Program-made: the position numbers and the translations under genes
Part shown: positions 10,642-64,000 of the stretch, one piece after another
Layout: every line of letters starts with the position of its first letter
Position numbering within the stretch: the first letter of the stretch is position 1
The notes under the pieces: model-generated
Databases searched by the model: none
Told to the model about the DNA's origin: nothing
Seen by the model: only the letters and a program-made list of their open reading frames with translations
DNA from: an uncultured Actinomycetes bacterium
Lineage (GTDB): Bacteria; Actinomycetota; Thermoleophilia; UBA2241
DNA length: 64,000 bases
Assembly (NCBI GenBank): GCA_963767005.1
Contig: CAVYCN010000019.1
Coordinates: 108,080-172,079 of the forward strand
Direction: 5' to 3'

Positions 10642-10732
10642 CTGCCTCTCCTGCACGATCGGGGCTTGGCGTAGTGGGCAAGCGCAACGCGCCGGTCACC
10701 GACTTGCCCGCCCGCGGGGGCTGGATGCGTAT

Positions 10733-10751
10733 CGTATGCAATCAGCATACC
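10733..10751. promoter_or_regulatory. Palindromic operator candidate GTATGC-N5-GCATAC upstream of the aminotransferase/MttB/M20 genes
   Basis: cGTATGCaatcaGCATACc, about 90 nt upstream of ATG 10641, forms an AT-rich island in GC-rich DNA. The same hexamer recurs at 19727-19748 (GGTATGCGCAGAGTATGCGTAG) and 20776-20795 (GTGCATACACACCGTATACG). Confidence 0.3.
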
Positions 10752-10768
10752 GAGCGCGGTGATGGCGG

Positions 10769-50297: not shown

Positions 50298-53039
50298 CTA
50301 GAAGGCCTGGATGTCGCGGTCCTTCATCGCCGCGAGGACCTTCTCGGGCAGGGCCGGCAGGTGCCGTACACGAGCCCCACAGGCGTCGTCGATCGCGTTG
50401 ATGATCGCCACGTGCGGAGCGGTGAGCGGCGCCTCGCCGCAGCCCGATGCGCCGTAGGGGCCGAGCGGCCGCGGCGTCTCGAGATACAGCACCGTCAGGT
50501 CGTCGGTGACGTCCTTCGGGTAGGGGATGCCGCAGGCCCGCATGTTGGTGTGCTTCTTCAGGTCCTCGAAGTCCTCGGTCAGCGCGAGACCGATGCCCTG
50601 CGAGAGGCTGCCCCACATCTGGCCGTCGACGTTCAGCCGGCTGTTGATGACGCCCACGTCGGTGCAGATCAGCAGGTGGTCGACGTAGGTCTTGCCGGTC
50701 GCCTCTTCGACCGAGACCTGCGACATGAAGACGCTGTACATCCAGTTGGGGATCGGATGGCCCTGACCGGTCTTCGGGTCGATGAGCACGCCCATCGTCT
50801 GGGTCCAGTTGCCCTCGTAGCGCAGGTCGAGGCCCTCGGCCACCATCTCGTCGTGGGTGCGGTAGGTGCCGTCGCCCTTGGCCATGGCGGCGATGAGCTT
50901 CTCGCAGGCGTCCTTGATGGCGTTGCCGACCAGGACCTGCGAACGGCTGCCGCCGGCGCCGCCGCTGTCGGGGCAGTAGGCGGTGTCGTTCAGGTCGACG
51001 CTGATCTGGTCCATGGCGAGGCCGAGCGGACGCAGCGCTTCGTGCGCCGTGCCGAGCGTGCCGCCGTCGGAGCCCTGGCCGTGGTCCTCCCAGGTGTTGT
51101 AGATGCGCACCGTGTTGTCTGCCCGCAGCTCGGCCGCGGCGTTGGCCACGTCCTCGCCGTCGCCGCCGGCGCCGAAGATGCCGAGCGAGATGCCAATGCC
51201 GCGCTTGATGCCGGCGGGCGCGGGCTCGTCTTTCCAGGCCTTGGCCTTGTCCCAGTAGGGCTTGACCATGTCGAAGAGCTTCTTGAACGAGTAGACCTCG
51301 TACTCCTGGCCCCACGAGTAGGTCGCGCCGGGCTCGGCGAGGTTCCTGTAGCGCAGCTCGAACGGGTCCATGCCCATCTTGCGGGCGAGCTCGTCGACGA
51401 TGCTCTCGCCGGCGAAGAAGGCCTGCGGCGAGCCCCAGGCGCGGAAGGGGGCGCCCCAGCCATGGTTCGTGCGCACCAGGTGGCCGTCGCCACGCATGTT
51501 GGGGATGTTGTAGCCGCCGCCGCAGAGCATGCCCTTCTGCACCAGGTTGTCGCCGAACTCCATGTACGGACCGTGGTCGCACCACCAGTGGTTCTCCATG
51601 GCGAGGAACTTGCCGTTCTCGTCGGCGGCGAGCTTGCAGTGGTACCAGTGCGGCGAGCGCTTGCCGGTGTAGGCGATGCTCATCCAGTAGTCGTACTTGA
51701 GGTAGACCGGCCGACCGGTCGCCATGTGGGCGGCGCCGAGCAGGGCCTCCATCGTCGGGCAGAACTTGTAACCGAAGGTGCCGCCCGTGTTGTTCTGCAC
51801 CATGCGCAGGTTCTCGAGCTCGACACCGAGGCCCTCGTTGATCATCGCCGCGTGGAAGTTCAAGGCCACGCTCTTGGAGTGGATCGTGAGGCGGCCTTCC
51901 TCGTCGGTGTAGGCGAAGCCGCAGTCGGGCTCGAAGTACAGGTGCGGCTGGCGCTGCAGGTAGTACTTGCCTTCGACGACGTGCGCCGCCTTCTCGAAGA
52001 TCGGGTCGGTCTCCTCACCCTTGATCAGGTTCTGGGTGAAGAACATGTTGGGCGTGCCGGGGTAGATGTCGATCGCGTCGTCGGCCATGGCGTCGAGCGC
52101 GTTCATGTACGCGGGCAGCTCCTCGAGCTCAACCTTGACCTTGGGCACCGCGGCCAGCGCCTGCTCGATCGTGGTAGCGCAAACGATCGCCAGGGCGTCG
52201 CCGTACTGGAAGACCTTGGTGTCGCACAGGATCGGGCGCTCCCAGCCGTCGGCCATGACGTCGTCGGGGTACATGACGAGGCCGTTGATACGGTTCTTGC
52301 CCTTGACGTCCTTGTGCGTGACGACCTTGAAGACGCCCGGCATCTTCTCGGCCTCGGACACGTCGATCGAGATGACGTTGGCGTGCGAGACCTGAGCGTG
52401 GACCACGGCGCAGTGCAGCGTCTCGGGGGGCATGCGCAGGTCGTAGTCGGCGCCGTAGAGCATGGTGCCGGTGACCTTGGCGAGGGCCGACGGCTTCGGG
52501 AAACGGGTGTTCCAGATGTGGCCGTCCTCGGGTACCTTGAACGTGAGCTCGTCCTCGCTCATCTCGCCGCGCAGCACCTTGGCGGCGTCGAGCACGGCGT
52601 CGACGAGCGGCTTGTAGCCGGTGCAGCGGCAGACGTTGGCGTGCTTCTGCCACCAGTCGCGGACCTCTTCGCGAGTCGGGTCCGGGTTCTCGTCGAGGAG
52701 CGCCTTGGACGAGACGATGAAGCCCGGCGAGCAGTAGCCGCACTGGGCGCCGCCGTGCAGGATCCAGGCGAGCTGCAGGGCGTGCAGCTTGTCGGGCGTG
52801 CCGATGCCCTCGATCGTCGTGATCTGCGACTCGGCCGGCACGCGCTTCATGGTCGTCGTGCAGGAGCGCACGACCTTGCCGTTCAGGATCACCGAGCAGC
52901 AGCCGCACTGGCCCTGGCCGCAGGCGACCTTGGTACCCAGCAAGCCGACCTGACGACGCAGCACGTCGCTCAGCTTCTGCCTGGGATCGACGATCACGAT
53001 CGTCGGGATCCCGTTGACGTTGATCAGCTTCTTGTCCAT
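50298..53039 (-). CDS. mop: Aldehyde oxidoreductase, Desulfovibrio Mop type (2x[2Fe-2S] + molybdopterin-cytosine-dinucleotide domains, no FAD domain)
   Basis: Intact at 913 aa. Near-colinear with D. gigas MOP as I recall it: VNGIP...GTKVACGQGQCGCCSVILNGKVVRSC...EGIG...LHGGAQCGYCSPGFIVS...CRCTGYKPLVDAV...KDVKGKNRI...PILCD.KVFQYGD...ELPAY...GGTFGYKF...TGKRSP...WEDHGQG...GGSRSQ...GASGCGE...PEKVL. ATG 53039 is preceded by GAGGAG. Confidence 0.92.
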   Translation of the reverse strand: MDKKLINVNGIPTIVIVDPRQKLSDVLRRQVGLLGTKVACGQGQCGCCSVILNGKVVRSCTTTMKRVPAESQITTIEGIGTPDKLHALQLAWILHGGAQCGYCSPGFIVSSKALLDENPDPTREEVRDWWQKHANVCRCTGYKPLVDAVLDAAKVLRGEMSEDELTFKVPEDGHIWNTRFPKPSALAKVTGTMLYGADYDLRMPPETLHCAVVHAQVSHANVISIDVSEAEKMPGVFKVVTHKDVKGKNRINGLVMYPDDVMADGWERPILCDTKVFQYGDALAIVCATTIEQALAAVPKVKVELEELPAYMNALDAMADDAIDIYPGTPNMFFTQNLIKGEETDPIFEKAAHVVEGKYYLQRQPHLYFEPDCGFAYTDEEGRLTIHSKSVALNFHAAMINEGLGVELENLRMVQNNTGGTFGYKFCPTMEALLGAAHMATGRPVYLKYDYWMSIAYTGKRSPHWYHCKLAADENGKFLAMENHWWCDHGPYMEFGDNLVQKGMLCGGGYNIPNMRGDGHLVRTNHGWGAPFRAWGSPQAFFAGESIVDELARKMGMDPFELRYRNLAEPGATYSWGQEYEVYSFKKLFDMVKPYWDKAKAWKDEPAPAGIKRGIGISLGIFGAGGDGEDVANAAAELRADNTVRIYNTWEDHGQGSDGGTLGTAHEALRPLGLAMDQISVDLNDTAYCPDSGGAGGSRSQVLVGNAIKDACEKLIAAMAKGDGTYRTHDEMVAEGLDLRYEGNWTQTMGVLIDPKTGQGHPIPNWMYSVFMSQVSVEEATGKTYVDHLLICTDVGVINSRLNVDGQMWGSLSQGIGLALTEDFEDLKKHTNMRACGIPYPKDVTDDLTVLYLETPRPLGPYGASGCGEAPLTAPHVAIINAIDDACGARVRHLPALPEKVLAAMKDRDIQAF

Positions 53040-53377: not shown

Positions 53378-56092
53378 TCAGCCGACCGGCACGGCCGCCG
53401 GCTCGTCGGCGGGCGCGGGCGCCTTTTCGATGCGCACCGCGCAGACCTTGAACTCGGCCGTCTTGGTGACCGGGTCGAAGGCCGAGTTGGTGAGCTCGTT
53501 GACCGGCGATTCCTTGTAGTGGAACGTCATGAAGCAGACGCCCGGCGGCACGATGTCGGTCACCGTCACGTGCGTCGTGATCGAGCCGCGCCGCGAGCTC
53601 ACGCGGGCCACGTCGCCCTCGGCCAGGTCGAGCCGTTCGGCGTCGACCGGGTTGATCTGGGCGAGCTCGTGGGGCCGCAGGTTCTCGAGGTTGGCCGAGT
53701 GCCGGGTCATGATGTTGTAGTGGTAGAGCATGCGCCCGGTCGTGAGCAGGATCGGGTACTCGTCGCTGCAGAGCTCGGCCGGCGCCTCGTACTCGATCCC
53801 CTGCAGCAGGCCCTTGCCACGTGTGAACCTGCCGACGTGCAGGAACCTGGTGCCCGGATGCGACTCGTCGGGGCAGGGCCACTGCAGGCCGACCTGATCG
53901 ATGCGCTCGTAGGTGATGCCGGCGTACTGCGGCACCAGGGCGCGCATCTCGTCGAAGATCTCCTGGGGCGAGTCGTAGTGCACCTCGTGGCCAAGGCGGC
54001 ACGAGAGGTCGGCGATGATCTGCCAGTCGGGGCGGCACTGCCCCGGCGGCTCGACCGCCTTGCGCACGCGCTGCACGCGGCGCTCGGTGTTGGTGAAGGT
54101 GCCGTCCTTCTCGGCGTAGCAGGCCGCCGGCAGGAACACGTCGGCGTACTTGGCCGTCTCGGTGATGAACAGGTTCTGGACCACGAGGAACTCGAGGCTG
54201 TCGAGAGCCTTGCGCACGTGGTTGGCGTCGGCGTCGGTGAGCGCCGGGTCCTCGCCCATGATGTACATCGCCTTGAGCTTGCCGTAGACGGCCATGTCGA
54301 GCATCTCGGGGATGCGCAGGCCCATCTTCTCGGGCAGCGGCACGCCGTAGGCGGCCGCGAACTTCGCCCTGGCGGCCTCGTCGTTCACGCTCGGGTAGCC
54401 CGGGTACGAGTTGGGCAGAGCGCCCATGTCGCAGGAGCCCTGCACGTTGTTCTGGCCGCGCAGCGGATTGACGCCGGCGTTCTCGACGCCGATGTGGCCG
54501 GTGACCATGGCGAGGTTGGCCAGGTTCATGACGTTGGCCGTGCCGGTGGTGTGCTCGGTGATGCCGAGCGTGTAGAAGATGCCGGCCTTGGGCGTGTTGG
54601 CGTACAGCTCGGCGGCCGCGCGGAGCTGCTCGACCGCCACGCCGGTGATCTCGGCGACGCGCTCGGGCGGGTAGTCCTTGACAACCTCCCAGAGGCCGTC
54701 GAACCCCTCGCAGCGCTCGGCGATGTAGGCCTTGTCGTGCCAGTCGTTGCTGATGATCAGGTAGAGCAGTCCGTTGACGAGCGCGTTGTCGGTGCCGGGC
54801 TTCAAGCGCAACCAGATGTGGGCGAGCTCGGCGAGCTCGGTGCGCCGCGGGTCGGCGACGATCAGCTTGGCGCCGTTCATGGTCGCGGCGCGCTTCATCT
54901 TGTTGCCGATGATCGGGTGCGCCTCGGGGGCGTTGGACCCGATGATGAACAGCACGTCGTCGAACTCGATCTCGCCGATCGAGTTGGTCATCGCGCCTGA
55001 ACCGAGCGTGGCGGCCAGACCGGCCACCGTCGGAGCGTGTCAGGTACGTGCGCAGTGATCGATGCTGTTGGTGTTCAGCCCCGCCCTCGTCAGGCGCTGC
55101 AGCAGGTAGTTCTCTTCGTTGGTGCAGCGCGCGGAGCTGAGCACGGCGAGGGCGTCGGGCCCGTCGCTGTGCTTGATCTCGAGCAGGCGCTTGGCGGTGT
55201 AGTCGAGCGCCTCGTCCCAGGTCGCCTCGACGAACACGCCGTCGCGCTTGATGAGCGGCGTCGTCACGCGGTCGGGGCTCGAGATGAGGTCGGTGTGGAA
55301 GCGGCCCTTGACGCACAGCGCGCCGGCGTTGACCGGCGCCTCGTAGTTGGCCGTGACGCCCACGACCTCGCCGTGGGCGACGTTCAGGTCGAAGTTGCAG
55401 CCGACGCCGCAGAAGGGGCAGGTGGTGCGCACCTTGGTGCGGTCCCAGCTCCGCGTGCCCTTGAGCTGCTTGTTGACGAGGGCGCCGGTCGGGCAGACGT
55501 CGACGCATTGGCCGCAGAAGCGGCAGAAATCCTGGTCGAGGGCGTGATCGAACGACGAGGTCACGGTCGACTCGAAGCCGCGGCCGGCGAAGTCGACCGC
55601 GCTCGTCACCTGCACCTCGGCGCAGACCCGCACGCACTTGCCGCAGAGGATGCACTTGTTCTGGTCGCGCTCGATCAGGTGGTTGACCGAGTCGATCTCG
55701 AGCTGCTTGGTGGCGCCCTTCACGAAGCTCGTGTGGTCGACGCCGTAGCGATAGCAGTACTCCTGCAGCAGGCAGTCGCCGGCCTGCTCGCAGATGAGGC
55801 AGTCCTGGGGGTGGTCGGAGAGCAGCAGGTCGAGCACCGTGCGGCGCGCGTCGACCACGCCCTCGGACTCGGTGAGCACGACCATGCCCTCGGTCACCGG
55901 CGTGGCGCAGGCGGCCGCCAGGTTGGGCCGGCCCTCGATCTCGACGCTGCACAGACGGCAGGCACCGAAGAGCGAGAGGTTCTTGTCGTAGCAGAGGGCG
56001 GGGATGTCGATGCCGACGCTCGCCGCCGCGTCGAGGATGGACGTGCCCGGCGGGACGCTGACCGCCCGACCGTCGATCACCAGGTCGACCAT
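53378..56092 (-). CDS. fdhA: Formate dehydrogenase alpha subunit (NuoG-like 2Fe-2S/4Fe-4S N-terminus + Mo/W-bis-PGD domain), selenocysteine encoded by in-frame TGA at 55040-55042
   Basis: Track ORFs 55040-56122 and 53378-55027 are in the same frame, separated only by a TGA. The junction reads NSIDHCART-[TGA]-HAPTVAGLAATLGSGAMTNSI, matching the FdhF-type ...CAR-x-U-H-x-P-(S/T)-V motif. N-terminus: VDLVIDGRAVSVPPGTSILDAA...CYDKNLSLFGACRLCSVEI. Likely start is ATG 56092 (or 56098), after GGAGGG. Confidence 0.88.
55010..55039 (-). promoter_or_regulatory. SECIS-like hairpin immediately 3' of the in-frame UGA
   Basis: The RNA reads UGA CACGCUCCGAC GGUGGCC GGUCU GGCCGCC. This is a 7-bp stem (one G-U) starting 12 nt after the UGA. 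The GGUCU apical loop resembles the E. coli fdhF SECIS loop. Confidence 0.65.
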
Positions 56093-56204
56093 ACTCATCC
56101 CTCCACGTCCACGGGGAATCACTGCCGCGCGCCTGCGAGCCGCGCGCCTGCGCCGGCGTTCCGGATGAGACCGGGCCGGCGGGCTTGTGGCCCGCTTCGC
56201 AATC

Positions 56205-56222: not shown

Positions 56223-56407
56223 TTCCGCGCGGGCGCGGCCAACGGGCGCGCGACTGCGGCCCGCGGACGTCGACCACCGCACCGTCCGCATCCGGCCCGA
56301 CGTGCTCGGACGCGACGTGGCCACATGTCCAAGAGAAGACGTCGCGGTTCTGCCACACCGGCGCGGACTCGCCTTGCCTGGGCTCCGCCCCGGACATAGA
56401 ATCCGCC

Positions 56408-56512
56408 CTGTCTCCGAGCCCGGGAACCCTAAGGACCTGATTGGTCTAAGGACCTTGGGCCGGTAGGGTACAGCGCGAAAGCGCCGTGTCTCCCAGTGCG
56501 GAAAGGAGATGG
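56408..56512 (+). promoter_or_regulatory. Moco (molybdenum cofactor) riboswitch-like aptamer
   Basis: The 5' end reads CCUGUCUCCGAGCC and the 3' end GCGGAAAGGAGAUGG. These can pair as P1 (56408-56415 with 56505-56512). A GAAA-tetraloop hairpin GCGC-GAAA-GCGC lies at 56473-56484. Tetraloop-receptor-like CCUAAG (56428-56433) and UCUAAG (56445-56450) are present. These are the features I recall for the Moco RNA motif (Rfam RF01055). It sits 170 nt upstream of a Mo/W-related operon. Confidence 0.7.
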
Positions 56513-56565
56513 CGCCGTCACGGCACCGTCCGCCCGACGCGGGGGTCGTGACAGCCCGCGCTTGC

Positions 56566-56657
56566 GGCCGGCCTCGAAGACGGCAGGCCGGGGGAGCGCC
56601 GGCCATCCTCTTCTCTTTCTCTTCTGGGCGCAGCGGAAGAGGCCGCGTGGCCTCTTC
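56566..56657 (+). terminator. Possible riboswitch expression platform: stem-loops followed by a pyrimidine/U-rich tract, with mutually exclusive pairings near the RBS
   Basis: CCGGCCU (56568-56574) pairs with AGGCCGG (56585-56591), and GGCCGG (56566-56571) with CCGGCC (56599-56604). AUCCUCUUCUCUUUCUCUUCU follows at 56605-56625. GAAGAGGCC (56636-56644) can pair either with GGCCUCUUC (56649-56657) or, via GAAGAGG, with CCUCUUC (56607-56613). RBS GAGAGGAG is at 56667-56674. Confidence 0.35.
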
Positions 56658-56683
56658 AGGTCGAGTGAGAGGAGTCATCGAAC

Positions 56684-57607
56684 ATGAGCAACCGCAGGCA
56701 GGGCATCGTACTTCTCGTCGTCGCCGTCCTGGTGGCAGCGGGCGTCATGCTGGCAATCGGCGCCGCTCCTGGCGCGACCGGCAAAGCGAGCGCCGCCCCC
56801 ACGACGTCGCCGTCGCCCTCGGCCAGCCCCGTGCTGCAGGTCGACCGCAACGGCCACAAGGTGGCGAGCTACACCCTCGACCAGATCAAGGCCTTCACCG
56901 CCGTTGCCACCTACGCCGGCTGGCGGGGCGGCTCGGCGCACGGTCCCGACGCCGTGACAGGCGCGGCCATTACCGACATCCTGAGCGCCGCCCTGGGCAC
57001 GCCGCTGACGACGGTCGAAAGCCTCCAGATCGCCGAGGTCCCGATCCAGCCGTCGGGTTACTCGCAGACCTTCAGCGGCCCGCAGATCATCGATCCCAAG
57101 GACAACTACGGGATGGTCGACTCGACCGGCACGCCTATCCCGCCGGCGAGCCTGACAGGCACGATCGCCGCCGTGCTCGTGTATTCGGATCCCGACGGAA
57201 ACGTCATGTCCGCCTCGAGCGGTCCGCTGCGCTCCTTCATGACCGATTCCGTGCTCGCCGACGGCGCATTCACGGTCGGTCAGAACAGCGTCTCGTCGGC
57301 CAACCTCCTGAACGTCATCGACGCCATCAAGATCACCTGCAAGCCCAGGCCGCGCGTCGTCACGCTCGGCAAGTCGTGCGCGTTCCGCGGCGTCGTGACC
57401 AACGCCATCGCGACCAACAAGTGGGTGGCCGTGCGCATGGTCAAGAACGGCAAGTTCGTCCTCAAGGGGACCGGCAAGGTCTCGGCGACCGGCGCCTACC
57501 GCATCGTGATCAAGCCGGGGAGGGTCGGCAAGCTCCACTTCGTCGTCACGTACCGGGCCGGCGCGATGTTCTTCAGCAAGGCGGTGACGATCACCGTCCA
57601 TAAGTAG
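56684..57607 (+). CDS. Exported protein P1: one sulfite-oxidase-fold-like (molybdopterin-oxidoreductase-like) module plus C-terminal Ig-like domain
   Basis: Signal/anchor MSNRRQGIVLLVVAVLVAAGVMLAIGAAPGA, then a PS-rich linker. Module: VASYTLDQIKAF...HGPDAVTGAAITDILSAALG...SGPLRSF, paralogous to the N-modules of P3 and P4. C-terminal beta-rich ~90 aa. Intact at 307 aa. Confidence 0.6.
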   Translation: MSNRRQGIVLLVVAVLVAAGVMLAIGAAPGATGKASAAPTTSPSPSASPVLQVDRNGHKVASYTLDQIKAFTAVATYAGWRGGSAHGPDAVTGAAITDILSAALGTPLTTVESLQIAEVPIQPSGYSQTFSGPQIIDPKDNYGMVDSTGTPIPPASLTGTIAAVLVYSDPDGNVMSASSGPLRSFMTDSVLADGAFTVGQNSVSSANLLNVIDAIKITCKPRPRVVTLGKSCAFRGVVTNAIATNKWVAVRMVKNGKFVLKGTGKVSATGAYRIVIKPGRVGKLHFVVTYRAGAMFFSKAVTITVHK

Positions 57608-57664
57608 CGATCGGACGCGGCGCCCTCGGGGTCGAACGACCCGCGGGCGGCCGCGCAGGCGGCG

Positions 57665-57706
57665 GACCGGTGGCGTCGGCTCCGCGCGGAGCCGACGCCA
57701 CCGGTC
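57665..57706 (+). terminator. 19-bp perfect GC-rich hairpin (GCGC loop) between P1 and P2
   Basis: GACCGGTGGCGTCGGCTCC (57665-57683), loop GCGC, then GGAGCCGACGCCACCGGTC (57688-57706). No U-tract. Confidence 0.45.
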
Positions 57707-57762
57707 GTCCCCGCGTCGCGGCAGCGGTCGCGCGCGGCAGGTGAAGGAGGCCTGACACGGTC

Positions 57763-59355
57763 ATGAGCGCATCCATCGCGCGTCACAGGGCGGCTCGGCG
57801 GGGCCGCGGCGCCGCTGTCTGTGCGTCAGCGGCGCTCGCCGCGGCGTGGCTCCTGCTCGGCGTCGTGTCCGTCGCCGGCGCGGCGCCGGCGACCCCGGCC
57901 GCTGGGACGGGCGCGACGGCCCAGGCCTCGCCGGCGACGACGGACGCGCAAGCCGCGTCCTCCACACCGTACGGCTGGGTCGTGCAGCTGCGCGGCGTGC
58001 TCAGCAGAGATCTCACCTCCGGTCAATTCGCCGCGCTCGCGGCCAAGTACTCGATCTGGAACGACGGCACCGACACCTGGACCGGCGTACCGCTGTGGCG
58101 TCTGGTCGCGCTGGTCGACGACAAGAACGCGGCCACGTTCGACGCGAGCCTGGCCAAGAAGGGCTACTCGATCCAGGTCGTCGGCCTTGGCGGCGTGGTG
58201 ACGCTGACGAGCGCCGACGGGCTGTGGGTCGGCAAGAACGGCGTGCTGGTCGCCGACCTCGAGGATTCGCTGCCCCTGGCATTCGGCACGCTGGCCGGCG
58301 CGACGTGGACGCCGACGTGGCCGGCCGAGCTCGTCGGCGCGGGCTTGACCGCCGATCGGCAGCTCGGCGGTGTCGTGCGGGTCATCGTATACAAGCCGGG
58401 CGTCAAACCGCCGGCAAGCCCCACGGTCCAGCCGAGCTGGGTCGTGCAGGTGCGCGGTGGCCTGAAGAGCGTCGACGACTCGGCCTCGCAGTTCCGCGCG
58501 CTCGCCAAGGCTCACCCGGTGAGCTGGACCGACACGGCCACCTCAGCCAAGTACACGGGCACGCCACTGTGGCGCCTGGTCGCCCAGGCCGACGGCGGCA
58601 GCCCGACCGCGCTGAACCTCGACCTCCTCGGCCTTGGCAACCTCGCCGCCCCCGGCGTGGGGTACAGCGTCGACGTGGTCGGCATGGGTGCGTCGGGCGC
58701 CACCACGACCACGGTCACGGCCTCGCAGTTCGCCGCCTCCAACAGCGTGGTCCTGGCCGACCGCCAGGGCTCTCCGCTCGCCCAGCTCACGCCGCTCGCC
58801 GGCACCGTCACAGGGTTGGACCCGGACTACGCCTGGACGCCGACCTGGCCACTGCGACTCTGCGGCACCGGCGTGACCACCGGCCAGGGCGGCGTGCTGC
58901 GCGTCGTGATCCACCGGCCACCGGTGCCGTCGTACGTGGTGCCGCTCACGCTGGTCGGGAGGCGCACGGTGAAGATCCCGTATCTCGCCTTCCCGACGTC
59001 GGTCACCTGGGACGGCCGCAAAGCCGGCAACATCAACCCCCAGCTCCGGGCGCTGTACCGCGGCCAGGCGCTGGACAAGCTGATCGGCCTGGTCGACGAC
59101 AAGGACCCCAAGACGTTCAACGCGACGCTCGCGCGCAAGGGCTACAAGATCGAGTTCATCGCAAGCGACGGCTACAAGTGGACGATCAGCAGCAAGACGG
59201 TCGTCGGCCGGACGCACTGGATCGTCGCGTCGCTCAAAGACGGCGCGACCATGGCGTCGGGCGAGGGCCCGTACCGCTATGTCGGATCGTTCATCAAGCC
59301 GTTCTACGGCAAACCGTCGGTGTACAAGCTCATCAAGATCAAGCTGATCTTCTAG
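57763..59355 (+). CDS. Exported protein P2: three tandem sulfite-oxidase-fold-like modules
   Basis: Signal with an RR pair: MSASIARHRAARRGRGAAVCASAALAAAWLLLGVVSVAGA. Three repeats carry W-T-G-(V/T)-PLWRLV...D, KKGY.I, P(L/A)RL/ELVG and VVRVIV / VLRVVI / LIKIKL endings. Intact at 530 aa. ATG is preceded by GAAGGAGG. Confidence 0.6.
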   Translation: MSASIARHRAARRGRGAAVCASAALAAAWLLLGVVSVAGAAPATPAAGTGATAQASPATTDAQAASSTPYGWVVQLRGVLSRDLTSGQFAALAAKYSIWNDGTDTWTGVPLWRLVALVDDKNAATFDASLAKKGYSIQVVGLGGVVTLTSADGLWVGKNGVLVADLEDSLPLAFGTLAGATWTPTWPAELVGAGLTADRQLGGVVRVIVYKPGVKPPASPTVQPSWVVQVRGGLKSVDDSASQFRALAKAHPVSWTDTATSAKYTGTPLWRLVAQADGGSPTALNLDLLGLGNLAAPGVGYSVDVVGMGASGATTTTVTASQFAASNSVVLADRQGSPLAQLTPLAGTVTGLDPDYAWTPTWPLRLCGTGVTTGQGGVLRVVIHRPPVPSYVVPLTLVGRRTVKIPYLAFPTSVTWDGRKAGNINPQLRALYRGQALDKLIGLVDDKDPKTFNATLARKGYKIEFIASDGYKWTISSKTVVGRTHWIVASLKDGATMASGEGPYRYVGSFIKPFYGKPSVYKLIKIKLIF

Positions 59356-59440
59356 GAGACCGAAGGTCCGGCGACGAACTCGTCGGGCGGGGCCCGCGGA
59401 GGGCAACGGCCGCGAGGCCATGCACGAAGAGAGGGGAGCC

Positions 59441-60583
59441 ATGAAGAGGCGCAGAGACCTGATGACCCTGGTGGTCGTCGCCGCGATCCTCGCCGCCAGC
59501 GTCGTGCTGGCCGGCAGCGTCGCACGCGGGGCGACAGGCGGCGGGACCGCTCTCGGCGTCTCGCCCTCACCGTGGCCGTCGCCGTCGCCGAGCGTCGTGC
59601 TGCAGGTCGGCCACGACGGCACGTTCGTGAAGGAGTACACGCTGGCCGACCTCGAGGCGCTGCCGGCGTCGGACCCGGGCACCGCCGTGTTCAACGGCTA
59701 CGCCGGCTTCATGAACACCGGGAACATCGTCTACGGCCCCGATGCCGTGTCGGGAATCACCCTGTCCGACGTCCTGCAGGATGCGCTGGGGGCGCCGCTC
59801 GGCGCGAACCAGTCGGTGCAGTTCATCGGGTCCGACGGCTACGTGCAGACGTACTCCGACGCCCAGCTGACCAACGTCGACCAGATGACCCAGCTGTACA
59901 ACGCGACCACCAAGGCACCGGTGTCGTCGACGAGCTACACGGGACCGTTCGCCACGGTCCTCCTGTACGCCGACAACACGCCTGGCGGCCAGGTGTTCAA
60001 CCCTGATCCGCCGCCCGCCGGCGACGGGCCCCTGCGCCTGGCGGTCGCCGACGCCACGAACGAGAACGTCGTCATGACCGGCAGCGACAGCGTCAAGTGG
60101 CTCGTCAAGCTGAACGTGCTCGACTCCGTGCCCAAGGACTGGAGCCTCAAGCTGACCGGGCTCAAGATCAAGGGCGTGCGGCAGACGCGCACGATCAGGC
60201 GCAACGACTACTCGAGCTGCCTAAGCTGCCACGAGTACTCGCACAAGGGCCAGTACACGACCCTCGGCCACAAGTGGAGCGGCGTGCCGCTCTACATGCT
60301 GATCGGCGAGGTCGACGGCGGCAACACGATGACCTTCAACGCCGCGCTCGCGAAGAAGGGCTACCGCATCGAGGTCATCACCTCGAAGGGCCAGAAGCGC
60401 TACGTGAGCTCGCGCCTGATCGTCTACAAGGGCGAGGGTCGGCGCAAGGTCGTGCTCGCCTGGACCCGCGACGGCCTGACGCTCCCCAGCAGCTCGTTCC
60501 CGCTGCGCCTGGTCGGTCCGACCCTGCTGTCGTCGCAGGAGATCGGCCGCATCACGCGGGTCGTGCTGCTGCCCGCGAAGTAA
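59441..60583 (+). CDS. Exported protein P3: two sulfite-oxidase-fold-like modules, second one with CLSCH (CxxCH) motif
   Basis: Signal: MKRRRDLMTLVVVAAILAASVVLAGSVARGA. N-module: YTLADLEALP...YGPDAVSGITLSDVL...GSDGYVQTY...GDGPLRLAV...SVKWLVKLNV. C-module: DYSSCLSCHEY...KWSGVPLYMLIGEVDGG...LAKKGYRIEVI...FPLRLVGPTLLSSQEIGRITRVVL. I prefer ATG 59441 (after GAGAGGGGAG) to the track start at 59420. Confidence 0.6.
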   Translation: MKRRRDLMTLVVVAAILAASVVLAGSVARGATGGGTALGVSPSPWPSPSPSVVLQVGHDGTFVKEYTLADLEALPASDPGTAVFNGYAGFMNTGNIVYGPDAVSGITLSDVLQDALGAPLGANQSVQFIGSDGYVQTYSDAQLTNVDQMTQLYNATTKAPVSSTSYTGPFATVLLYADNTPGGQVFNPDPPPAGDGPLRLAVADATNENVVMTGSDSVKWLVKLNVLDSVPKDWSLKLTGLKIKGVRQTRTIRRNDYSSCLSCHEYSHKGQYTTLGHKWSGVPLYMLIGEVDGGNTMTFNAALAKKGYRIEVITSKGQKRYVSSRLIVYKGEGRRKVVLAWTRDGLTLPSSSFPLRLVGPTLLSSQEIGRITRVVLLPAK

Positions 60584-60594
60584 CAAGAAGACGG

Positions 60595-60631
60595 GGGTGG
60601 GGGCGGGCTCTGAAAGAGCCCGCCCCCACCC
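60595..60631 (+). terminator. 16-bp perfect GC-rich hairpin between P3 and P4
   Basis: GGGTGGGGGCGGGCTC (60595-60610), loop TGAAA, then GAGCCCGCCCCCACCC (60616-60631). It starts 12 nt after the P3 stop. Confidence 0.5.
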
Positions 60632-60665
60632 GCCACAGGAGCGCGAGGGCGCCGAAAGGACGGCC

Positions 60666-61712
60666 ATGAGCCATCGCAGCATCGTCACGAGGCCGGCCGG
60701 TCTGATCGTCCTCGTGCTCCTCCTCCCCGCGCTCTTACTGGGCGCGGCGCTGGCCATCGGCGGCCTGGGCGGCTGCGGTGCGGCGGGATCGACCGCCACC
60801 TCGCCGAGCTCGGGCGGTCCCGTCGTGGTCACCGTCGCCGGCGCCAAGGGCAGCAAGTCGTTCACGCTGGCGCAACTCGAGGCGCTGCCCTCCTACACCG
60901 GTTACGCCGGCATCAAGGACAGCGTCGGGGTGATCACGCCGCCCACGCAGTACACGGGCGTGCCGCTCTCCGAGCTCACCGCGCAGGTCGGTGGCGTCGA
61001 CCCGTCGTACGGCGTCACGGTGCTCGCCAAGGACGGCTACGGCATGACTTTCTCGGCCGGGCAGGCGGCCGGCGGTGACTTCACGACCTACGACCCGGTG
61101 ACCGGCGCCGAGCGCTCGCCGGCCTACAAGCTCACGCTCGTGCTCGCCTACCGGCACCAGGGCAAGCCGCTCGACCCCTCCGAGGACGGCCCGTTGCATC
61201 TGGTCTTCGCCGAGCCCAAGGCCGACGTTGTGGTCGACGGCCACTGGTCGGTGCGCTGGGTCGACCGGCTCGAGGTCAAGAAGTCGCTCGGCCAGTGGCA
61301 GGTGGCGGTGCAGGGCTACACGAGCTCGACGCTCACCCAGGCGTCGTACGTTTCGTGCGCCTCGCCCGGCTGTCACGGCAGCGAGTACTCAGACACCTCG
61401 GGGCAGCGCTGGACCGGCATCCCGCTGTGGCTCGTGGTCGGATCGGTCGACGACGGCCGCACCCACGGTGCCGGGGCCTTCGACGTGAAGCTGGCCCGGA
61501 AGGGCTACCGGATCGAGCTGATCGCCGCGAACGGCGTCACGACCTTCTTGAGCTCGCGCGACCTGCTCAGGCACAAGAACTGGATCCTGGCCGGACAGAT
61601 GGACGGTGAGACGCTGACACCCGACTACTTCCCGCTGCGCCTGGTCGGACCGGGCCTCACCGACGACCAGTCGATCGGGCGCATCACCGAGGTGCGACTG
61701 CGCTCCGGCTGA
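60666..61712 (+). CDS. Lipoprotein P4: two sulfite-oxidase-fold-like modules, second one with CASPGCH (Cx4CH) motif
   Basis: Lipobox in MSHRSIVTRPAGLIVLVLLLPALLLGAALAIGGLGGCG. N-module: FTLAQLEALP...QYTGVPLSELTAQVG...AKDGYGMTF...EDGPLHLVF...SVRWVDRLEV. C-module: YVSCASPGCHGSEY...RWTGIPLWLVVGSVDDG...LARKGYRIELI...FPLRLVGPGLTDDQSIGRITEVRL. ATG 60666. Confidence 0.6.
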   Translation: MSHRSIVTRPAGLIVLVLLLPALLLGAALAIGGLGGCGAAGSTATSPSSGGPVVVTVAGAKGSKSFTLAQLEALPSYTGYAGIKDSVGVITPPTQYTGVPLSELTAQVGGVDPSYGVTVLAKDGYGMTFSAGQAAGGDFTTYDPVTGAERSPAYKLTLVLAYRHQGKPLDPSEDGPLHLVFAEPKADVVVDGHWSVRWVDRLEVKKSLGQWQVAVQGYTSSTLTQASYVSCASPGCHGSEYSDTSGQRWTGIPLWLVVGSVDDGRTHGAGAFDVKLARKGYRIELIAANGVTTFLSSRDLLRHKNWILAGQMDGETLTPDYFPLRLVGPGLTDDQSIGRITEVRLRSG

Positions 61713-61720
61713 GGGTGATC

Positions 61721-62860
61721 ATGGCAGGTTGCAGGCGGGTGGGAGCGACGACAGCGGTGCGGCGCGTTTGCGCGATCGCTGCGCGCGCGCTGCTCGCCGC
61801 GGCGCTCCTCGCCGCAGCGCTGCTCGGCGTGGCGACGCTCGCCGGCTGCACGCACGGCACACACGACAAGACGCTCTCGCTGGTCGACGCCGACAGCCTC
61901 ATCATCCCGTTCGCGCACCTGGCGCAGGCCTATCATCGGGCCCATCCGGGCGTGCAGGTCGAGACCGAGACGCACGGCAGCATCCAGACCATCCGTCAGG
62001 TCACCGACCTGGGTCGCAGCTTCGACGTGCTCACCTCGGCCGACCCGTACCTGGTCACGCTCATGATGGAGGACGCCCGGCATCCGACCGCCGGCTGGTA
62101 CGCCGTCTTTGCCACGAACCGCATGGTCCTCGCCTGGTCGCCGCACAGCCGCTTCGCGGCGCTGTTCCGTTCGGGGGACTGGGTCAAGGCGATCACCACG
62201 CCGGGTGTGCAGCTCGGCCTGGCCGACCCACGCTTCGACGCGACGGGCTACCGGGCCCTCATGGTGCTCGCGCTGGCGCAGCGCTATTACAACGACGACC
62301 ACCTGTTCGCCGACGTCACGGTCGGCCGGTTCTCGCCGCCGATCACGCTGACGAGCGAGCGCGACGGCCGCGAGGTGATCGACGTGCCCGAACTCCTCGA
62401 GGCCGCGTCGGGCACGGGACTCGTGCTGCGCGACACCGCCATCGAGCTCGAGACGCTGCTCGAGGCGGGCGACATCGACTGTACGTTCGAATACGAGAGC
62501 GTCGCTCGTCAGCACCACATGCCGTTCGTGTCACTGCCGGCCGCCGTCGACCTGGGCTCGCAACGCTACGCCACCGAATATGCGAAGGTCGCGGTCGCGA
62601 CGCCGTTCCAGCGCTTCGCGAGCGTCAAGCCGCTGTTCGTGGGCGCACCGATCGCCTACGCGGTGACGATCCCGAGCACGGCCCGGAACACCGCCGAGTC
62701 GGAGCGGTTCATCGCCTTCCTGCTCGGCCCCCAGGGCCGCGCCATCCTCGCGGCCGACGACCAGCCGAGCGTGACGCCGGCGCTCGTCGACCACTACGCG
62801 GCGCTGCCGGCGTCGCTGCGGGCGCTCTGCCGGCCGCTGCAGCCTGGGCAGGCGCCGTGA
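61721..62860 (+). CDS. wtpA: Tungstate/molybdate ABC transporter substrate-binding lipoprotein, WtpA-like
   Basis: Lipobox LLGVATLAGC. Reads ETHGSIQTIRQVTDLGRSFDVLTSADPYL...WYAVFATNRMVLAW...LGLADPRFDATGYRALMVLALAQRYYND...LEAGDIDCTFEYESVARQHHMPFVSLP...PIAYAVTIPSTARN. This follows the WtpA pattern as I recall it from archaeal WtpA and is distinct from the two ModA copies here. Confidence 0.7.
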   Translation: MAGCRRVGATTAVRRVCAIAARALLAAALLAAALLGVATLAGCTHGTHDKTLSLVDADSLIIPFAHLAQAYHRAHPGVQVETETHGSIQTIRQVTDLGRSFDVLTSADPYLVTLMMEDARHPTAGWYAVFATNRMVLAWSPHSRFAALFRSGDWVKAITTPGVQLGLADPRFDATGYRALMVLALAQRYYNDDHLFADVTVGRFSPPITLTSERDGREVIDVPELLEAASGTGLVLRDTAIELETLLEAGDIDCTFEYESVARQHHMPFVSLPAAVDLGSQRYATEYAKVAVATPFQRFASVKPLFVGAPIAYAVTIPSTARNTAESERFIAFLLGPQGRAILAADDQPSVTPALVDHYAALPASLRALCRPLQPGQAP

Positions 62861-62892
62861 GCGCACGGGTCGAACGGTCGAGGAGCGCGAGG

Positions 62893-62936
62893 GGCGGGGC
62901 GGCGGCGAGGCCGCGCGGCCTCGCCGCCGCCCCGCC
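62893..62936 (+). repeat. 20-bp perfect inverted repeat (GCGC loop) followed by TTTT, located between wtpA stop and the first supported codons of wtpB
   Basis: GGCGGGGCGGCGGCGAGGCC (62893-62912), loop GCGC, GGCCTCGCCGCCGCCCCGCC (62917-62936), then GCCTTTTCGG. Confidence 0.7.
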
Positions 62937-62984
62937 GCCTTTTCGGTCCTTTCCGGGGCGCTCGGCTTCGTCCTGCTGCTGTTC

Positions 62985-63722
62985 GTGGCGGCGCCGCTCG
63001 TCGCCCTGGTCACCGGAACGAGCCTGCACGAGCTGCTGAGCACGCTCGGCGAGTCCGACATCCGCGCCGCTCTGGCGACTTCGGTCGAGGCCGCTGTCCT
63101 GGCTACGGTCCTCGCCGCGATCTTCGGCGTGCCGCTCGCCTACCTGCTCGCGCGCCGCAGCTTCGCCGGGAAGCGCCTGATCGAGGGCCTGATCGACCTG
63201 CCCATCGTCTTTCCGCACACCGCCGCCGGCATCGCGTTGCTGCTCGTGTTCGGTCGCAGCGGCGCCTTCGGCCGCGGCTTCGCGCATCTCGGCCTGGCCT
63301 TCACCGACACCCTGGCCGGCGTCGTCGTGGCGATGCTCTTCGTGAGCCTGCCGTTCCTGGTCGACACGGCGCGCGAGTCGTTCGCGCTGGTCGACCCCGG
63401 CTACGAACGGGTGGCCCGCACCCTGGGCGCCTCGCCGGGCGTCGCCTTCGTTCGGATCGCGCTGCCACTCGCCTGGCGCGGCGTCCTGGCCGGCGCGTTG
63501 CTCATGTGGGCGCGCGGCATGAGCGAGTTCGGCGCCATCGTGATCCTCGCCTACAACCCCAAGACGATGTCGGTGCTCGTCTATGAGCGGTTCGAGGGCC
63601 TCGGTCTGGGCGCCGCCAAGCCGGCCGCGCTGCTCATCGTGCTGCTCGCGCTGGTCGTGTTCGTCGTGGTGCGCTCGATCGGCGGGCGGGAGCGATCCGA
63701 CGGACGAGGGCGGTCCGCATGA
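62985..63722 (+). CDS. wtpB: Tungstate/molybdate ABC transporter permease, WtpB-like (N-terminus unresolved)
   Basis: Reads [36 protein letters not shown]...[20 protein letters not shown]...[14 protein letters not shown]. In-frame upstream codons (62940-62984: FSVLSGALGFVLLLF) look like the first TM helix but lack a start codon. A GTG at 62857 overlapping the wtpA stop is in another frame, implying one indel near 62935-62945. Confidence 0.75.
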
Positions 63723-64000
63723 TCGGCGCCCGCGGGCTTCAGGTGCGCGCCGGCTCGTTCACGCTCGGGCCGATCGACCTCGCCGTGGCCGACGGCGAGT
63801 ATCTCGCCGTGGTCGGTCCGAGTGGGGCCGGCAAGAGCGTGCTGCTCGAGACCCTCGCCGGCCTGCGGCCGGCCGCGGGCGGCCACGTCGTGGCCGGCGA
63901 CGGCGAAGCCGCGAACGGCCCGCCGAGCGGCCTGCGGTCGGGAGCTGGCGGAGGCGACGGCGCCGACGTGACCGGACTGCCGCCCGAGCGCCGCGGCATC
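63719..64000 (+). CDS. wtpC: ABC transporter ATP-binding protein, WtpC-like, N-terminal 94 codons, runs off the right edge
   Basis: My translation from ATG 63719 (ATGA overlap with the wtpB stop) gives [55 protein letters not shown]..., containing a Walker A motif. It is not in the ORF track because it has no stop in the window. Confidence 0.8.

Follow-up and report, generated by a model that had tools for sequence, protein, structure and literature searches.

A Moco/Tuco-class riboswitch in front of exported, multi-module proteins of sulfite-oxidase-like fold and a WtpABC importer: a candidate operon for tungsten or molybdenum acquisition

What are four exported proteins, built from repeated modules resembling the Moco-binding domain of sulfite oxidases (the SUOX fold), doing between a Moco-type riboswitch and the genes of an oxyanion importer? 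The question is raised by the last part of the window, i.e. the whole stretch of 64,000 nt from an uncultured Actinomycetes bacterium that was analysed here. The initial annotation offered two answers, namely exported Mo/W enzymes or proteins made for capture or scavenging when the cofactor is scarce. The second fits the data best, and the reading we favour, with a probability of roughly 0.55, is that of a W/Mo acquisition operon, in which WtpABC is assisted by the four proteins (P1–P4) as extracytoplasmic accessories for capture or hand-over; the ligand and the hand-over step are what we infer.

The element at 56400..56524 of the forward strand matches the Moco/Tuco riboswitch family RF01055 with 58.5 bits (E 1.9e-11; gathering score 36), and the Moco leader suspected earlier is, as judged from this match, a riboswitch of the Moco/Tuco class. 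In the alignment the P3 hairpin of the RF01055 model is deleted, as in the P3-lacking class, and because the aptamer is devoid of P3 the cofactor sensed is probably the tungsten form. Immediately 5′ of the aptamer lies a promoter-like −35/−10 pair, TTGCCT-17-TAGAAT (56374..56402, forward strand), recognized by consensus match only, the scan returning 2 sites in the region versus 0.0 expected from shuffles. The leader between the aptamer and P1 (56525..56683, forward strand) is a candidate expression platform; its minimum free energy fold, with a z-score of only −0.74, contains a GC hairpin lacking a U tract and pairs the polypyrimidine run CCUCUUCUCUUUCUCUUCU with the Shine-Dalgarno sequence GAGAGGAG. 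Unlike it, the leaders of related loci show an antiterminator/terminator arrangement, with GGAAAGG paired to CCUUUCC and then a GC hairpin plus a U-rich tract. An RNA of the RF01055 type precedes the operon in all eight loci tested with Rfam, and a purpose-built model, derived from 9 copies, places the riboswitch 5′ of the operon in about 35 loci and in essentially every related locus with upstream DNA. P3-less RNAs have been linked to tungsten cofactor use and to wtpA/tupA, and in Syntrophomonas wolfei they precede ‘putative sulphite oxidase’ genes (Regulski et al. 2008, PMC2408646).

Downstream of the leader follow, on the same forward strand, four intact open reading frames, whose coordinates had been given correctly and whose lengths (307, 530, 380 and 348 aa) are equal to those of the gene calls on a contig 99.8% identical to the window. 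P1 (56684..57607; 307 aa) consists of an N-terminal signal or anchor, a Pro/Ser linker, one type-A module (aa 48-215, nt 56825-57328; A-module HMM match) and a C-terminal Ig-like domain (aa 216-307; weak Big_6 match, 17.4 bits). P2 (57763..59355; 530 aa) has a signal or anchor and three type-B modules (aa 66-212, 213-390 and 391-530), while P3 (59441..60583; 380 aa) combines a signal or anchor with a type-A (aa 50-232) and a type-B module (aa 233-380). P4 (60666..61712; 348 aa) is a lipoprotein with the same succession of a type-A (aa 50-206) and a type-B module (aa 207-348); its lipobox (LGGC, with Cys37; AACGG in the P4 family) and the Pro/Ser-rich linkers, both reported before, are visible in the sequence. 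HMMs of the P4 family recover eight modules, arranged as A, BBB, AB and AB in P1 to P4. BLASTP relates P3 to P4 (E 2e-50), P1 to the N-terminal module of P3 (38% identity, E 7e-34) and a P2 module to the C-terminal one of P4 (E 2e-20), and the profiles of the P2 and P4 families are aligned by hhalign with a probability of 99.6% (E 8e-24). The three approaches agree with the eight homologous A and B modules of the initial annotation and place the paralogy of P1–P4 far beyond chance. Homologues number 289 for P4, from a word-filtered search, and only 27 for P2, every one labelled ‘hypothetical’.

The run continues unbroken, as had been claimed, into the importer genes, all on the forward strand. 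The wtpA gene (61715..62860; likely ATG at 61721) starts 2-8 nt 3′ of the P4 stop codon and encodes a tungstate/molybdate-binding lipoprotein with an LAGC lipobox (TIGR03730, 244.3 bits against a cut-off of 242.75; SBP_bac_11, 5e-31). The permease gene wtpB (62856..63722) has as its best match the WtpB model NF040839, at 263 bits, below the cut-off of 340; it is in frame within the window only over 62985-63722, and its GTG start (about 62857) is out of frame because of a 1-nt deletion with respect to the near-identical contig, probably an assembly indel. The start of wtpC (63719..64000) overlaps the wtpB stop; the 5′ part of this ABC ATPase gene, whose translation includes the Walker A motif GPSGAGKS, continues beyond the window end; related loci have a complete wtpC.

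The prediction that this gene order would recur together with RF01055 proved right, the succession of riboswitch, module proteins, wtpA and wtpB being present in about 40 Actinomycetota/Thermoleophilia species represented by metagenome-assembled genomes (MAGs). In all of the approximately 35 of these loci that are long enough, wtpA and wtpB follow the module proteins, with an identity between P4 proteins of only 47-55%. In Anaerolineales, A and B modules are found upstream of wtpA, and one lipoprotein, the only such case seen, joins a PF00174-type module (25.6 bits) to TupA (NF041772, 240 bits). A Bathyarchaeum MAG (Bathyarchaeia) encodes an AB protein directly 5′ of a wtpA-permease-ATPase-ModE-like cluster, and further module loci include TOBE, moaA and moaC genes. 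All the genomes with module loci are uncultured MAGs, some of them from frameshift-prone assemblies. Single-module versions precede an ECF-type transporter and have a P3-containing RF01055 in front; therefore, the modules track a substrate or pathway rather than one transporter protein. Overall, riboswitches of the Moco class recur before module arrangements of three kinds. The wider family comprises 1527 cluster representatives at E<=1e-3, including giant surface proteins of methanogens with six to about ten modules per chain.

As to the fold, PF00174 (threshold 24 bits) scores 28.2 bits on P3 and 46.5 bits on P4, in two stretches (25.5 and 26.3 bits for the modules taken singly), but P1 by itself gives no match to it and P2 no Pfam match at all; the profile expected for every module is thus found in P3 and P4, and P1 and P2 are tied to the SUOX fold through homology and a structure model. 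The comparison of models with sulfite oxidase and YedY turned out as anticipated: Foldseek finds sulfite oxidases for the AF2 model of P4 (pLDDT 86), at E 2e-7, and sulfite oxidase, YedY and PruR for that of P2 (pLDDT 74.6), PruR being for both the best structural match per domain (target-normalized TM 0.65-0.74 for P4 and 0.60-0.70 for P2). A-module profiles searched against the PDB find PruR 7KOM first (E 1.2e-4), with plant sulfite oxidase also matched. On these profiles and models, the modules have the SUOX Moco-binding fold, in line with the original claim.

With the SUOX enzymes (chicken and plant sulfite oxidases, SorA/SorT, YedY/MsrP; PF00174) the modules share the core fold and the motifs WxGxPL, DGY, GPLRLV and SVKW, and annotation pipelines call the homologues ‘molybdopterin-dependent oxidoreductase’ or, in some sources, ‘YedY’. 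That P1–P4 are genuine exported Mo/W enzymes of this family, as the database names, the above-threshold scores of P3 and P4, a Cys near the Mo-ligand loop position in the B modules of these two proteins and the P3-less riboswitches known before putative sulfite oxidases (Regulski 2008) would suggest, is nevertheless very unlikely. In SUOX enzymes the Moco domain is complete, the Mo-ligand Cys is invariant, a dimerization domain is usual and periplasmic members are exported by Tat; most modules here show none of these features. Indeed, the PF00174 matches span about HMM positions 63-160 of 169 (starts ranging from 36 to 68), i.e. the N-terminal third of the model is missing and the domains are cut to PruR size; a candidate Mo-ligand Cys is found in neither the A modules nor the three modules of P2, and is thus missing from six of the eight. 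Known periplasmic Moco enzymes require Tat, but the signal peptides here are of Sec or lipoprotein type, no conserved RR motif is present in the N-termini of the P4 and P2 families, and the P4 family carries a Sec lipoprotein signal. The archaeal chains of up to ten modules and the fusion of one module to a substrate-binding protein also speak against such enzymes, and the proposal of exported enzymes is not supported.

PruR, of Agrobacterium, Vibrio and Klebsiella, is a periplasmic pterin-binding protein of about 130-150 aa that has lost the Mo-ligand Cys (PDB 7KOS, 7KOM, 7RKB, 7KP2; PMC11194511), and the modules are likewise small, exported, non-catalytic SUOX-fold domains. It differs in having a single domain and in its partner, the c-di-GMP enzyme DcpA of Proteobacteria, on which it acts and with which it is encoded, whereas P1–P4 consist of several modules, stand under riboswitch control and are linked to W/Mo transporters. 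The DGY of the A modules is aligned with an NDY stretch in the Vibrio vulnificus protein, and the pterin contacts described for PruR include a Tyr and an Asn. Together with the structural matches and the cofactor-sensing riboswitch, this would agree with modules by which a pterin from outside the cell, either molybdopterin, a precursor or a product of Moco/Tuco breakdown, is captured for sensing or salvage under cofactor scarcity, and the ECF-type transporters preceded by single-module versions belong to a class usually importing vitamins. We regard such a role as unlikely, since the window operon contains an oxyanion importer only and no pterin transporter, one module is fused to the tungstate-binding TupA, DcpA is not at the locus, and Moco and molybdopterin, once free of protein, are chemically very unstable. 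Against the acquisition reading that we prefer stand the closest solved relatives, which bind pterins rather than oxyanions, and the variant with an ECF-type transporter, for which a vitamin-like pterin would be a fitting substrate.

The B modules of P3 and P4 also contain a Cys/His site that is absent from PruR and from all three P2 modules. In P3 the motif is CLSCH (C260-H264; 60218..60232, forward strand), partnered by a Met in the next loop (GGNTM), and orthologues have CVNCH, or CSAQGCH with Met; in P4 it is CASPGCH (C231-H237; 61356..61376, forward strand), partnered by His267 of the next loop, with C231, C236 and H237 invariant and H267 nearly so among 115 sequences. Across 406 modules the site covaries with the loop residue, a loop His or Met being found in 282 of the 289 B modules with the hairpin Cys and His, versus 11 of the 61 without both. 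By this covariation the Cys/His pair and the His/Met are gained and lost together, i.e. as one unit, and, located at or near the place of Mo ligation in SUOX enzymes, they are the most likely binding or reactive site of the P3 and P4 B modules. If haem were attached at CLSCH and CASPGCH and the Met or His of the next loop served as its distal ligand, these modules would be c-type cytochromes in a SUOX-like fold, serving extracellular redox chemistry such as the oxidation of reduced or thiolated W/Mo to the transportable oxyanion. Both CX2CH and CX4CH are known motifs for the attachment of haem c, all AB proteins (about 40 loci) keep the ‘CH’ pair without exception, the next loop offers a His, or a Met with the CX2CH and CSAQGCH forms, c-type cytochromes use Sec export, and there is a weak match to the NCBIfam ‘GEGP motif-containing diheme protein’. 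However, haem is not a general explanation of the site because in the wider family 184 of the 289 sites have a single Cys, or a Cys 1-6 residues from the His, no CXnCH motif is present in those giant proteins that were assigned to Methanocorpusculum and Methanoregulaceae clusters (Methanomicrobiales are generally regarded as devoid of c-type cytochromes), and 70% of modules without the two-Cys motif still have the loop His; for P3 and P4 themselves, haem attachment appears decidedly unlikely.

Sites of Cys and His that come and go as one are also typical of structural zinc, and the site could be a structural zinc or disulfide site in generic cell-surface proteins, co-transcribed with wtpABC without direct functional meaning. 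The annotation of the methanogen homologues as ‘cell surface glycoprotein’, their PKD repeats and the lack of the site in P2 are in keeping with this. Only a small chance is left to it by the synteny with W/Mo importers across Actinomycetota, Chloroflexota and Archaea, the riboswitches before three module arrangements and the TupA fusion, an association too extensive to be easily ascribed to chance.

For the acquisition operon we thus propose the following scheme. When the pterin cofactor is plentiful, the riboswitch would turn the operon off; its products would be an oxyanion importer, WtpABC, and four accessory proteins, exported by Sec and tethered to the membrane, whose eight modules are seen as non-catalytic, PruR-like relics of the Moco-binding fold of sulfite oxidase. 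Outside the membrane these would capture a ligand or hand it over, and so provide WtpA with more tungstate/molybdate, or with more of a W/Mo complex; tungstate/molybdate, a pterin and haem c are possible ligands. The arrangement probably helps cells to capture tungsten or molybdenum outside the membrane, although characterized WtpA-type binding proteins need no helpers.

The arrangement is conserved and unstudied. The statement that no comparable system had been described stands in so far as no functional description of these module proteins was found in the literature, but not entirely, as P3-less RNAs before ‘putative sulphite oxidase’ genes had been noted. The transporter operons of that survey have the same aptamer family, in its P3-lacking class, but the ‘sulphite oxidase’ genes were treated as presumed Moco enzymes, and no conserved set of exported, multi-module proteins of SUOX fold within a transport operon was described there (PMC2408646). 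Other proteins of W/Mo homeostasis, often encoded beside the same transporters, are ModA/TupA/WtpA, the TOBE proteins (Mop, Tub; PMC11980592) and MoSto, none of which has the SUOX fold, the TOBE proteins and MoSto being moreover cytoplasmic; no extracytoplasmic helper for W/Mo binding proteins is described in the literature found. The closest functional analogy would be with the multi-module NEAT-domain proteins (IsdA/B/C/H) that pass haem on to the ABC importer of the Isd system (IsdE lipoprotein, IsdF permease) in Gram-positive bacteria. There, too, paralogous surface proteins with one to three module copies are encoded with a lipoprotein substrate-binding protein and an ABC importer, and are induced under nutrient scarcity. 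The likeness is functional only, as the two systems share neither fold nor ligand, a sortase anchors the Isd proteins, and a relay by P1–P4 would be a matter of analogy.

The initial annotation had placed four ORFs 3′ of a riboswitch-like leader, and they are found at those coordinates, on the same strand: P1 at 56684-57607, P2 at 57763-59355, P3 at 59441-60583 and P4 at 60666-61712. Independent gene calls on a contig 99.8% identical to the window (L051; L001-L054 denote related genomic loci) give equal lengths, namely 307, 530, 380 and 348 aa. The genes that follow encode a WtpABC-type importer: wtpA is recognized by TIGR03730 (244.3 bits versus a cut-off of 242.75) and matches PRK04168 below its cut-off (250.9 versus 355 bits); the best match of wtpB is the WtpB model NF040839 (263 bits, under the cut-off of 340); and wtpC, which starts at 63719 and carries a Walker A motif, is incomplete because it runs past the window end. 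Relative to L051, where wtpB begins with a GTG corresponding to about 62857, the window has a 1-nt deletion (GGGTCGA-ACGG) that breaks the reading frame from this start, and the first in-frame start, at 62985, would shorten the first transmembrane helix. Since sister contigs show many such breaks, the deletion is most likely an indel of long-read assembly.

The Moco/Tuco riboswitch RF01055 is the sole Rfam family in the 64-kb window, where it is matched over model positions 1-135 at 56400-56524 (+), with 58.5 bits (gathering score 36) and an E value of 1.9e-11; a putative promoter, the sigma-70-like pair TTGCCT-17-TAGAAT, lies at 56374-56402. The positions of the P3 hairpin of the RNA model (not to be confused with protein P3) are deleted from the window copy in the covariance-model alignment, which places the aptamer in the P3-lacking (‘Tuco’) subclass; the P3-containing copies of L043 and L049 carry an insert of 37-39 nt at this place. 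The P3-less class of Moco RNAs has been associated with tungsten cofactor use, and its occurrence 5′ of ‘putative sulphite oxidases’ is already on record (Regulski 2008, PMC2408646).

Folding of the window leader yields a GC hairpin devoid of a U tract, pairing between a polypyrimidine run and the Shine-Dalgarno sequence (z-score -0.74), and no expression platform with statistical support. Within the first ~60 nt 3′ of the aptamer of L011, L012, L020, L021 and L033, CCUUUCC can pair with GGAAAGG, the conserved 3′ strand of the aptamer, and is also part of a GC-rich hairpin followed by a U-rich tract (UUUUC/UUCUUC), so that an antiterminator/terminator arrangement acting as an OFF-switch is plausible in these related loci; the window leader lacks it. 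RF01055 is found upstream in 8/8 loci tested with Rfam and, when a covariance model derived from the related copies is used, ahead of the operon in practically every locus that includes upstream DNA. Extra copies are present in L016 (12019-12136), L023 (12059-12180), L038 (9743-9864), L039 (11909-12026), L041 (12524-12643), L025 (5866-5987), L007 (7914-8037) and L005 (5256-5379), and on the minus strand in L011, L017 and L036. They are located just 3′ of wtpABC, divergent from the module operon or, in one locus, between P1-like and P2-like genes; those 3′ of wtpABC presumably head the next operon.

P1-P4 are assembled from two related module types, A and B. In an all-against-all BLASTP comparison P3 matches P4 over its full length (2e-50), P1 matches the N-terminal half of P3 (7e-34) and the P2 modules match the C-terminal half of P4 (2e-20), while profile-profile comparison joins the P2 and P4 families with a probability of 99.6% (E 8e-24). 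HMMs built from the halves of the P4 family recover A in P1, BBB in P2 and AB in both P3 and P4, i.e. the eight modules initially counted; at the C-terminus of P1, an Ig-like domain is suggested by a single weak match, to Big_6. PF00174 (Oxidored_molyb; gathering threshold 24 bits) recognizes the whole P4 (46.5 bits, in two stretches) and P3 (28.2 bits) above threshold. When single modules are submitted, the N- and C-terminal modules of P4 (P4A and P4B) score 25.5 and 26.3 bits, those of P3 (P3A and P3B) 12.6 and 20.4 bits, and there is no match for P1A or P2 modules 1-3. The AlphaFold2 model of P4 (115-sequence alignment, pLDDT 86) retrieves chicken sulfite oxidase with Foldseek (E 2e-7), and also SorA/SorT, nitrate reductase and YedY, with the best per-domain overlap (target-normalised TM 0.65-0.74) found for 134-149-aa proteins of the PruR type, which are non-catalytic, pterin-binding and of the sulfite oxidase (SUOX) fold. 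For P2, a protein with no Pfam match, the model (pLDDT 74.6) gives the same list (chicken sulfite oxidase E 3e-4), and both models superpose on PruR structures 7KOM, 7KOS, 7RKB and 7KP2 with target-normalised TM of 0.60-0.74. Sequence-only searches of the PDB with whole-protein, A and B profiles are marginal (E 1e-4 to 1e-2) and place no Cys reliably: the A profile finds Vibrio PruR 7KOM (E 1.2e-4) and plant sulfite oxidase (E 2.2e-4), and the B profile the ‘...LAYEMNG..L..DHGFPLRVVVPG...SVKW’ region of sulfite oxidases. Because Pfam (P3/P4), structure-model (P4 and P2) and PDB-profile matches agree, together with the paralogy, the SUOX fold proposed by the initial annotation is right for all eight modules.

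That P1-P4 are themselves Moco enzymes is very unlikely, and this reading is rejected on their signal peptides, the truncation of the domain and missing Cys residues. Periplasmic Moco enzymes receive the cofactor in the cytoplasm and, therefore, need Tat export. The N-termini of the P4 family carry a Sec-type lipoprotein signal, with a lipobox that reads LGGC in the window protein and AACGG across the family, and twin arginines, as judged by eye, are not conserved in the P4 or P2 families, being found in some members and absent in many; the export route predicted from these N-termini is Sec, not Tat. The modules span 140-180 aa, with PF00174 matches beginning at HMM position 36-68 of 169, and by this measure are PruR-sized truncations of the Moco domain (for PruR, PMC11194511). 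No cysteine is present at the Mo-ligand position of the A modules and of the three P2 modules; P3B and P4B have Cys residues near the Mo-ligand loop, whose spacing, like a sub-threshold alignment with plant sulfite oxidase, hints at equivalence. Relatives that include archaeal surface proteins with six to ten modules in one chain and the fusion of a module with a solute-binding protein (SBP) also count against an enzyme. The likeness is, instead, to PruR, a small exported SUOX-fold domain without the Mo-ligand Cys; however, PruR is encoded with its partner c-di-GMP enzyme DcpA in a pruR-dcpA operon, whereas no DcpA-like gene is found at this locus and wtpABC lies downstream instead. The tungsten storage protein Tub, a cytoplasmic TOBE protein, is unrelated.

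Homologues of P4 number in the hundreds, at ~50% identity, and are named ‘molybdopterin-dependent oxidoreductase’ or ‘YedY catalytic subunit’ in the source; those of P2 are only 27, all named ‘hypothetical’. A survey with a single genome for each species recovered 43 loci, of which all but one (labelled Deltaproteobacteria) belong to uncultured Thermoleophilia/Actinomycetota MAGs. The order P2-like, P3-like AB protein, P4, wtpA and wtpB is kept in each of the ~35 loci long enough to show it, with a P1-like gene in some of them, and other actinobacterial loci add TOBE, moaA and moaC genes. In a 91%-identical relative the whole cassette is found beside MarR/MFS genes rather than formate dehydrogenase; the cassette, therefore, behaves as a unit.

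The module family extends well beyond these loci. An HMMER search of 1.84 billion cluster representatives (clusters at 50% identity) gave 1527 relatives at E<=1e-3, 360 of them at E<=1e-30, and a profile of diverse B modules retrieves mostly unnamed single-module proteins of 180-200 aa. Giant relatives of 1000-3139 aa, with 5-10 A/B modules and about nine or ten in the longest (family representatives P0268, P0284, P0343, P0348 and P0424-P0437), go under names such as ‘cell surface glycoprotein’, ‘PKD repeat protein’, ‘DUF4430 domain-containing’ and ‘molybdopterin-dependent oxidoreductase’, and the entries with a named source belong to Methanocorpusculum, Methanoregulaceae and other Euryarchaeota. 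AB proteins often end in one or two copies of a third, shorter module type (~115 aa; ‘HPKKG...Y.GV.L...DGY...C.DC...MP...W.K’), which occurs in many representatives (e.g. P0295, P0300) and, in the Anaerolineales MAG GCA_016717045.1 (L047), at 4520-4969 and at the C-terminus of 7001-7870. In this MAG, wtpA and a permease come after one A and one B module (the latter with CGAPQCH), and the following gene (9897-11204) encodes a lipoprotein in which a module of the third type (PF00174 25.6 bits, residues 55-144) is fused to TupA (NF041772, 240 bits); the locus has two permeases in total and an upstream HTH plus PBP_like regulator. Among the 150 best representatives, queried with WtpA and TupA, there are no further SBP fusions, so that the Anaerolineales fusion is a single case. 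In a Bathyarchaeum MAG an AB protein stands directly 5′ of a cluster that comprises wtpA, a permease, a TOBE-containing ATPase and a ModE-like protein. In a separate arrangement (L043 7532-12243, L044, L045 and L054 5389-9958), a P3-containing RF01055 leads into two tandem genes for exported proteins with one B module each, then an NTPase_1 gene and an ECF-type transporter. The latter combines a fused double ABC ATPase with a 203-aa S-like membrane protein (weak PF09819 match) and a T component of the CbiQ type, and is a candidate for an ECF-type transporter governed by a Moco riboswitch.

A Cys/His site recurs in the B modules. Every AB protein in actinobacterial loci contains C-x4-C-H (CA[S/T/A]PGCH) or C-x2-C-H (CLSCH in P3 of the window, CVNCH in orthologues), 12-18 residues before WxGxPL, and the loop that follows supplies either His (KKHDAGAY) or Met (GGNTM). 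The CXnCH motif and the loop His/Met are both missing from P2-type and single-module proteins. In a wider sample of 406 B modules, sorted by hairpin class, 289 have a hairpin Cys and His in some form and 282 of these the loop His/Met: 102 out of 105 for the two-Cys CXnCH, all 71 for a single CH and 109 out of 113 for C-x(1-6)-H. When the hairpin has neither Cys nor His (61 modules), the loop residue is found in 11. Thus, the presence and absence counts identify the site as a Cys/His...His(Met) composite that is acquired and lost in one piece. Two leads would put it at the place of the Mo ligand, namely its spacing from WxGxPL, which we take to resemble that of the Mo-ligand Cys in YedY, and the sub-threshold alignment with plant sulfite oxidase, in which the Cys/His loop falls on the motif TLQCAGN. 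It is read as the candidate functional site of B modules, for binding or reaction, which may coordinate W/Mo directly or bind another metal; for two-Cys members like P3 and P4, haem c is a further candidate. The perfect covariation of CXnCH with the loop His/Met across ~40 actinobacterial loci, with both present in P3B and P4B, at first suggested a haem c site, but across the family one Cys or a non-adjacent Cys/His pair prevails and the giant proteins traced to Methanocorpusculum and Methanoregulaceae clusters are without any CXnCH; to our knowledge, Methanomicrobiales are generally held to have no c-type cytochromes. As a general explanation haem c is rejected, most sites having one Cys or a spaced Cys...His and the loop His being common without the two-Cys motif, and in view of these site forms and of the CXnCH-free giant proteins it is, therefore, kept as a minority alternative for the two-Cys subset.

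Because the modules accompany three transporter families (WtpA, TupA and ECF), one of them is fused to TupA, they are repeated along the chain and long Pro/Ser-rich linkers separate them from their membrane anchors, they would act on the transported substrate rather than being enzymes of another pathway. We infer that P1-P4 are accessories to WtpA in the capture and hand-over of W/Mo. When the cofactor is scarce, the cell would make WtpABC along with four tethered surface proteins, whose modules would bind either the W/Mo substrate or a complex containing it before handing or presenting it to the WtpA lipoprotein; the closest functional analogy to such a hand-over is the Isd/NEAT haem relay. 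The main alternative is that the modules bind a pterin, as PruR does, which agrees with their structural similarity to PruR and with the alignment of the module DGY on the NDY stretch of PruR (PDB-profile alignment with 7KOM), but is weakened because the window operon has no pterin transporter. More broadly, the SUOX Moco fold may have been reused in Actinomycetota, Chloroflexota, Bathyarchaeia and methanogens as a widespread group of pterin-free, extracytoplasmic modules for W/Mo capture, in which Cys/His...His(Met) at the ancestral Mo position binds the metal and arrays relay it to a WtpA, TupA or ECF-type importer; to this reading as a whole we assign a chance of roughly one in four.

If true, it would reveal a previously unrecognized tier in the acquisition of tungsten and molybdenum, which are scarce trace metals essential for formate, aldehyde, nitrate and CO2 metabolism. 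In the current view, a binding protein and an ABC permease suffice for W/Mo uptake; a conserved set of riboswitch-controlled surface modules attached to importers would add a new step, correct the widespread mis-annotation as ‘molybdopterin-dependent oxidoreductase / YedY’ and bring nutrient uptake within the range of the non-catalytic SUOX-fold branch recently recognized with PruR, in a form that makes a new hypothesis of trace-metal acquisition directly testable. The riboswitch, WtpABC and the SUOX/PruR fold are each already known. Literature searches turned up no publication that connects SUOX-like modules with W/Mo uptake. Nor did they return any description of cofactor-less, Sec-exported SUOX-fold proteins with several modules that form a conserved block within W/Mo uptake operons, of the cross-phylum reach of this block (bacterial and archaeal), of the TupA fusion, of the ECF-linked variant or of the covarying Cys/His site.

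Two neighbourhoods of the operon deserve mention. Beyond the window end, wtpC is followed in the window's own clade by a gene for an exported protein of 663-675 aa with faint NHL-repeat similarity (L051 8833-10824, L050 17214-19241, L001 14273-16282), 42-49% identical in L001-L007 and 33% in L008, and not detected in loci more distant than this clade. On the other side, divergent from the riboswitch promoter, lies the gene of a formate dehydrogenase alpha subunit (53378-56122, minus strand), with a NuoG-like Fe-S N-terminus and Molybdopterin/Molydop_binding domains. It is split into two ORFs by an in-frame TGA at 55040-55042 (...IDHCART-TGA-HAPTVAGL), which we take to be the classic CAR(V/T)UH selenocysteine site. 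A 913-aa molybdoenzyme of the xanthine-dehydrogenase/aldehyde-oxidase family (Fer2, Ald_Xan_dh_C, MoCoBD_1/2), mapped from the L050 gene calls to about 50298-53039 on the minus strand, adjoins the formate dehydrogenase, and the riboswitch operon therefore neighbours two Mo/W-dependent enzymes.
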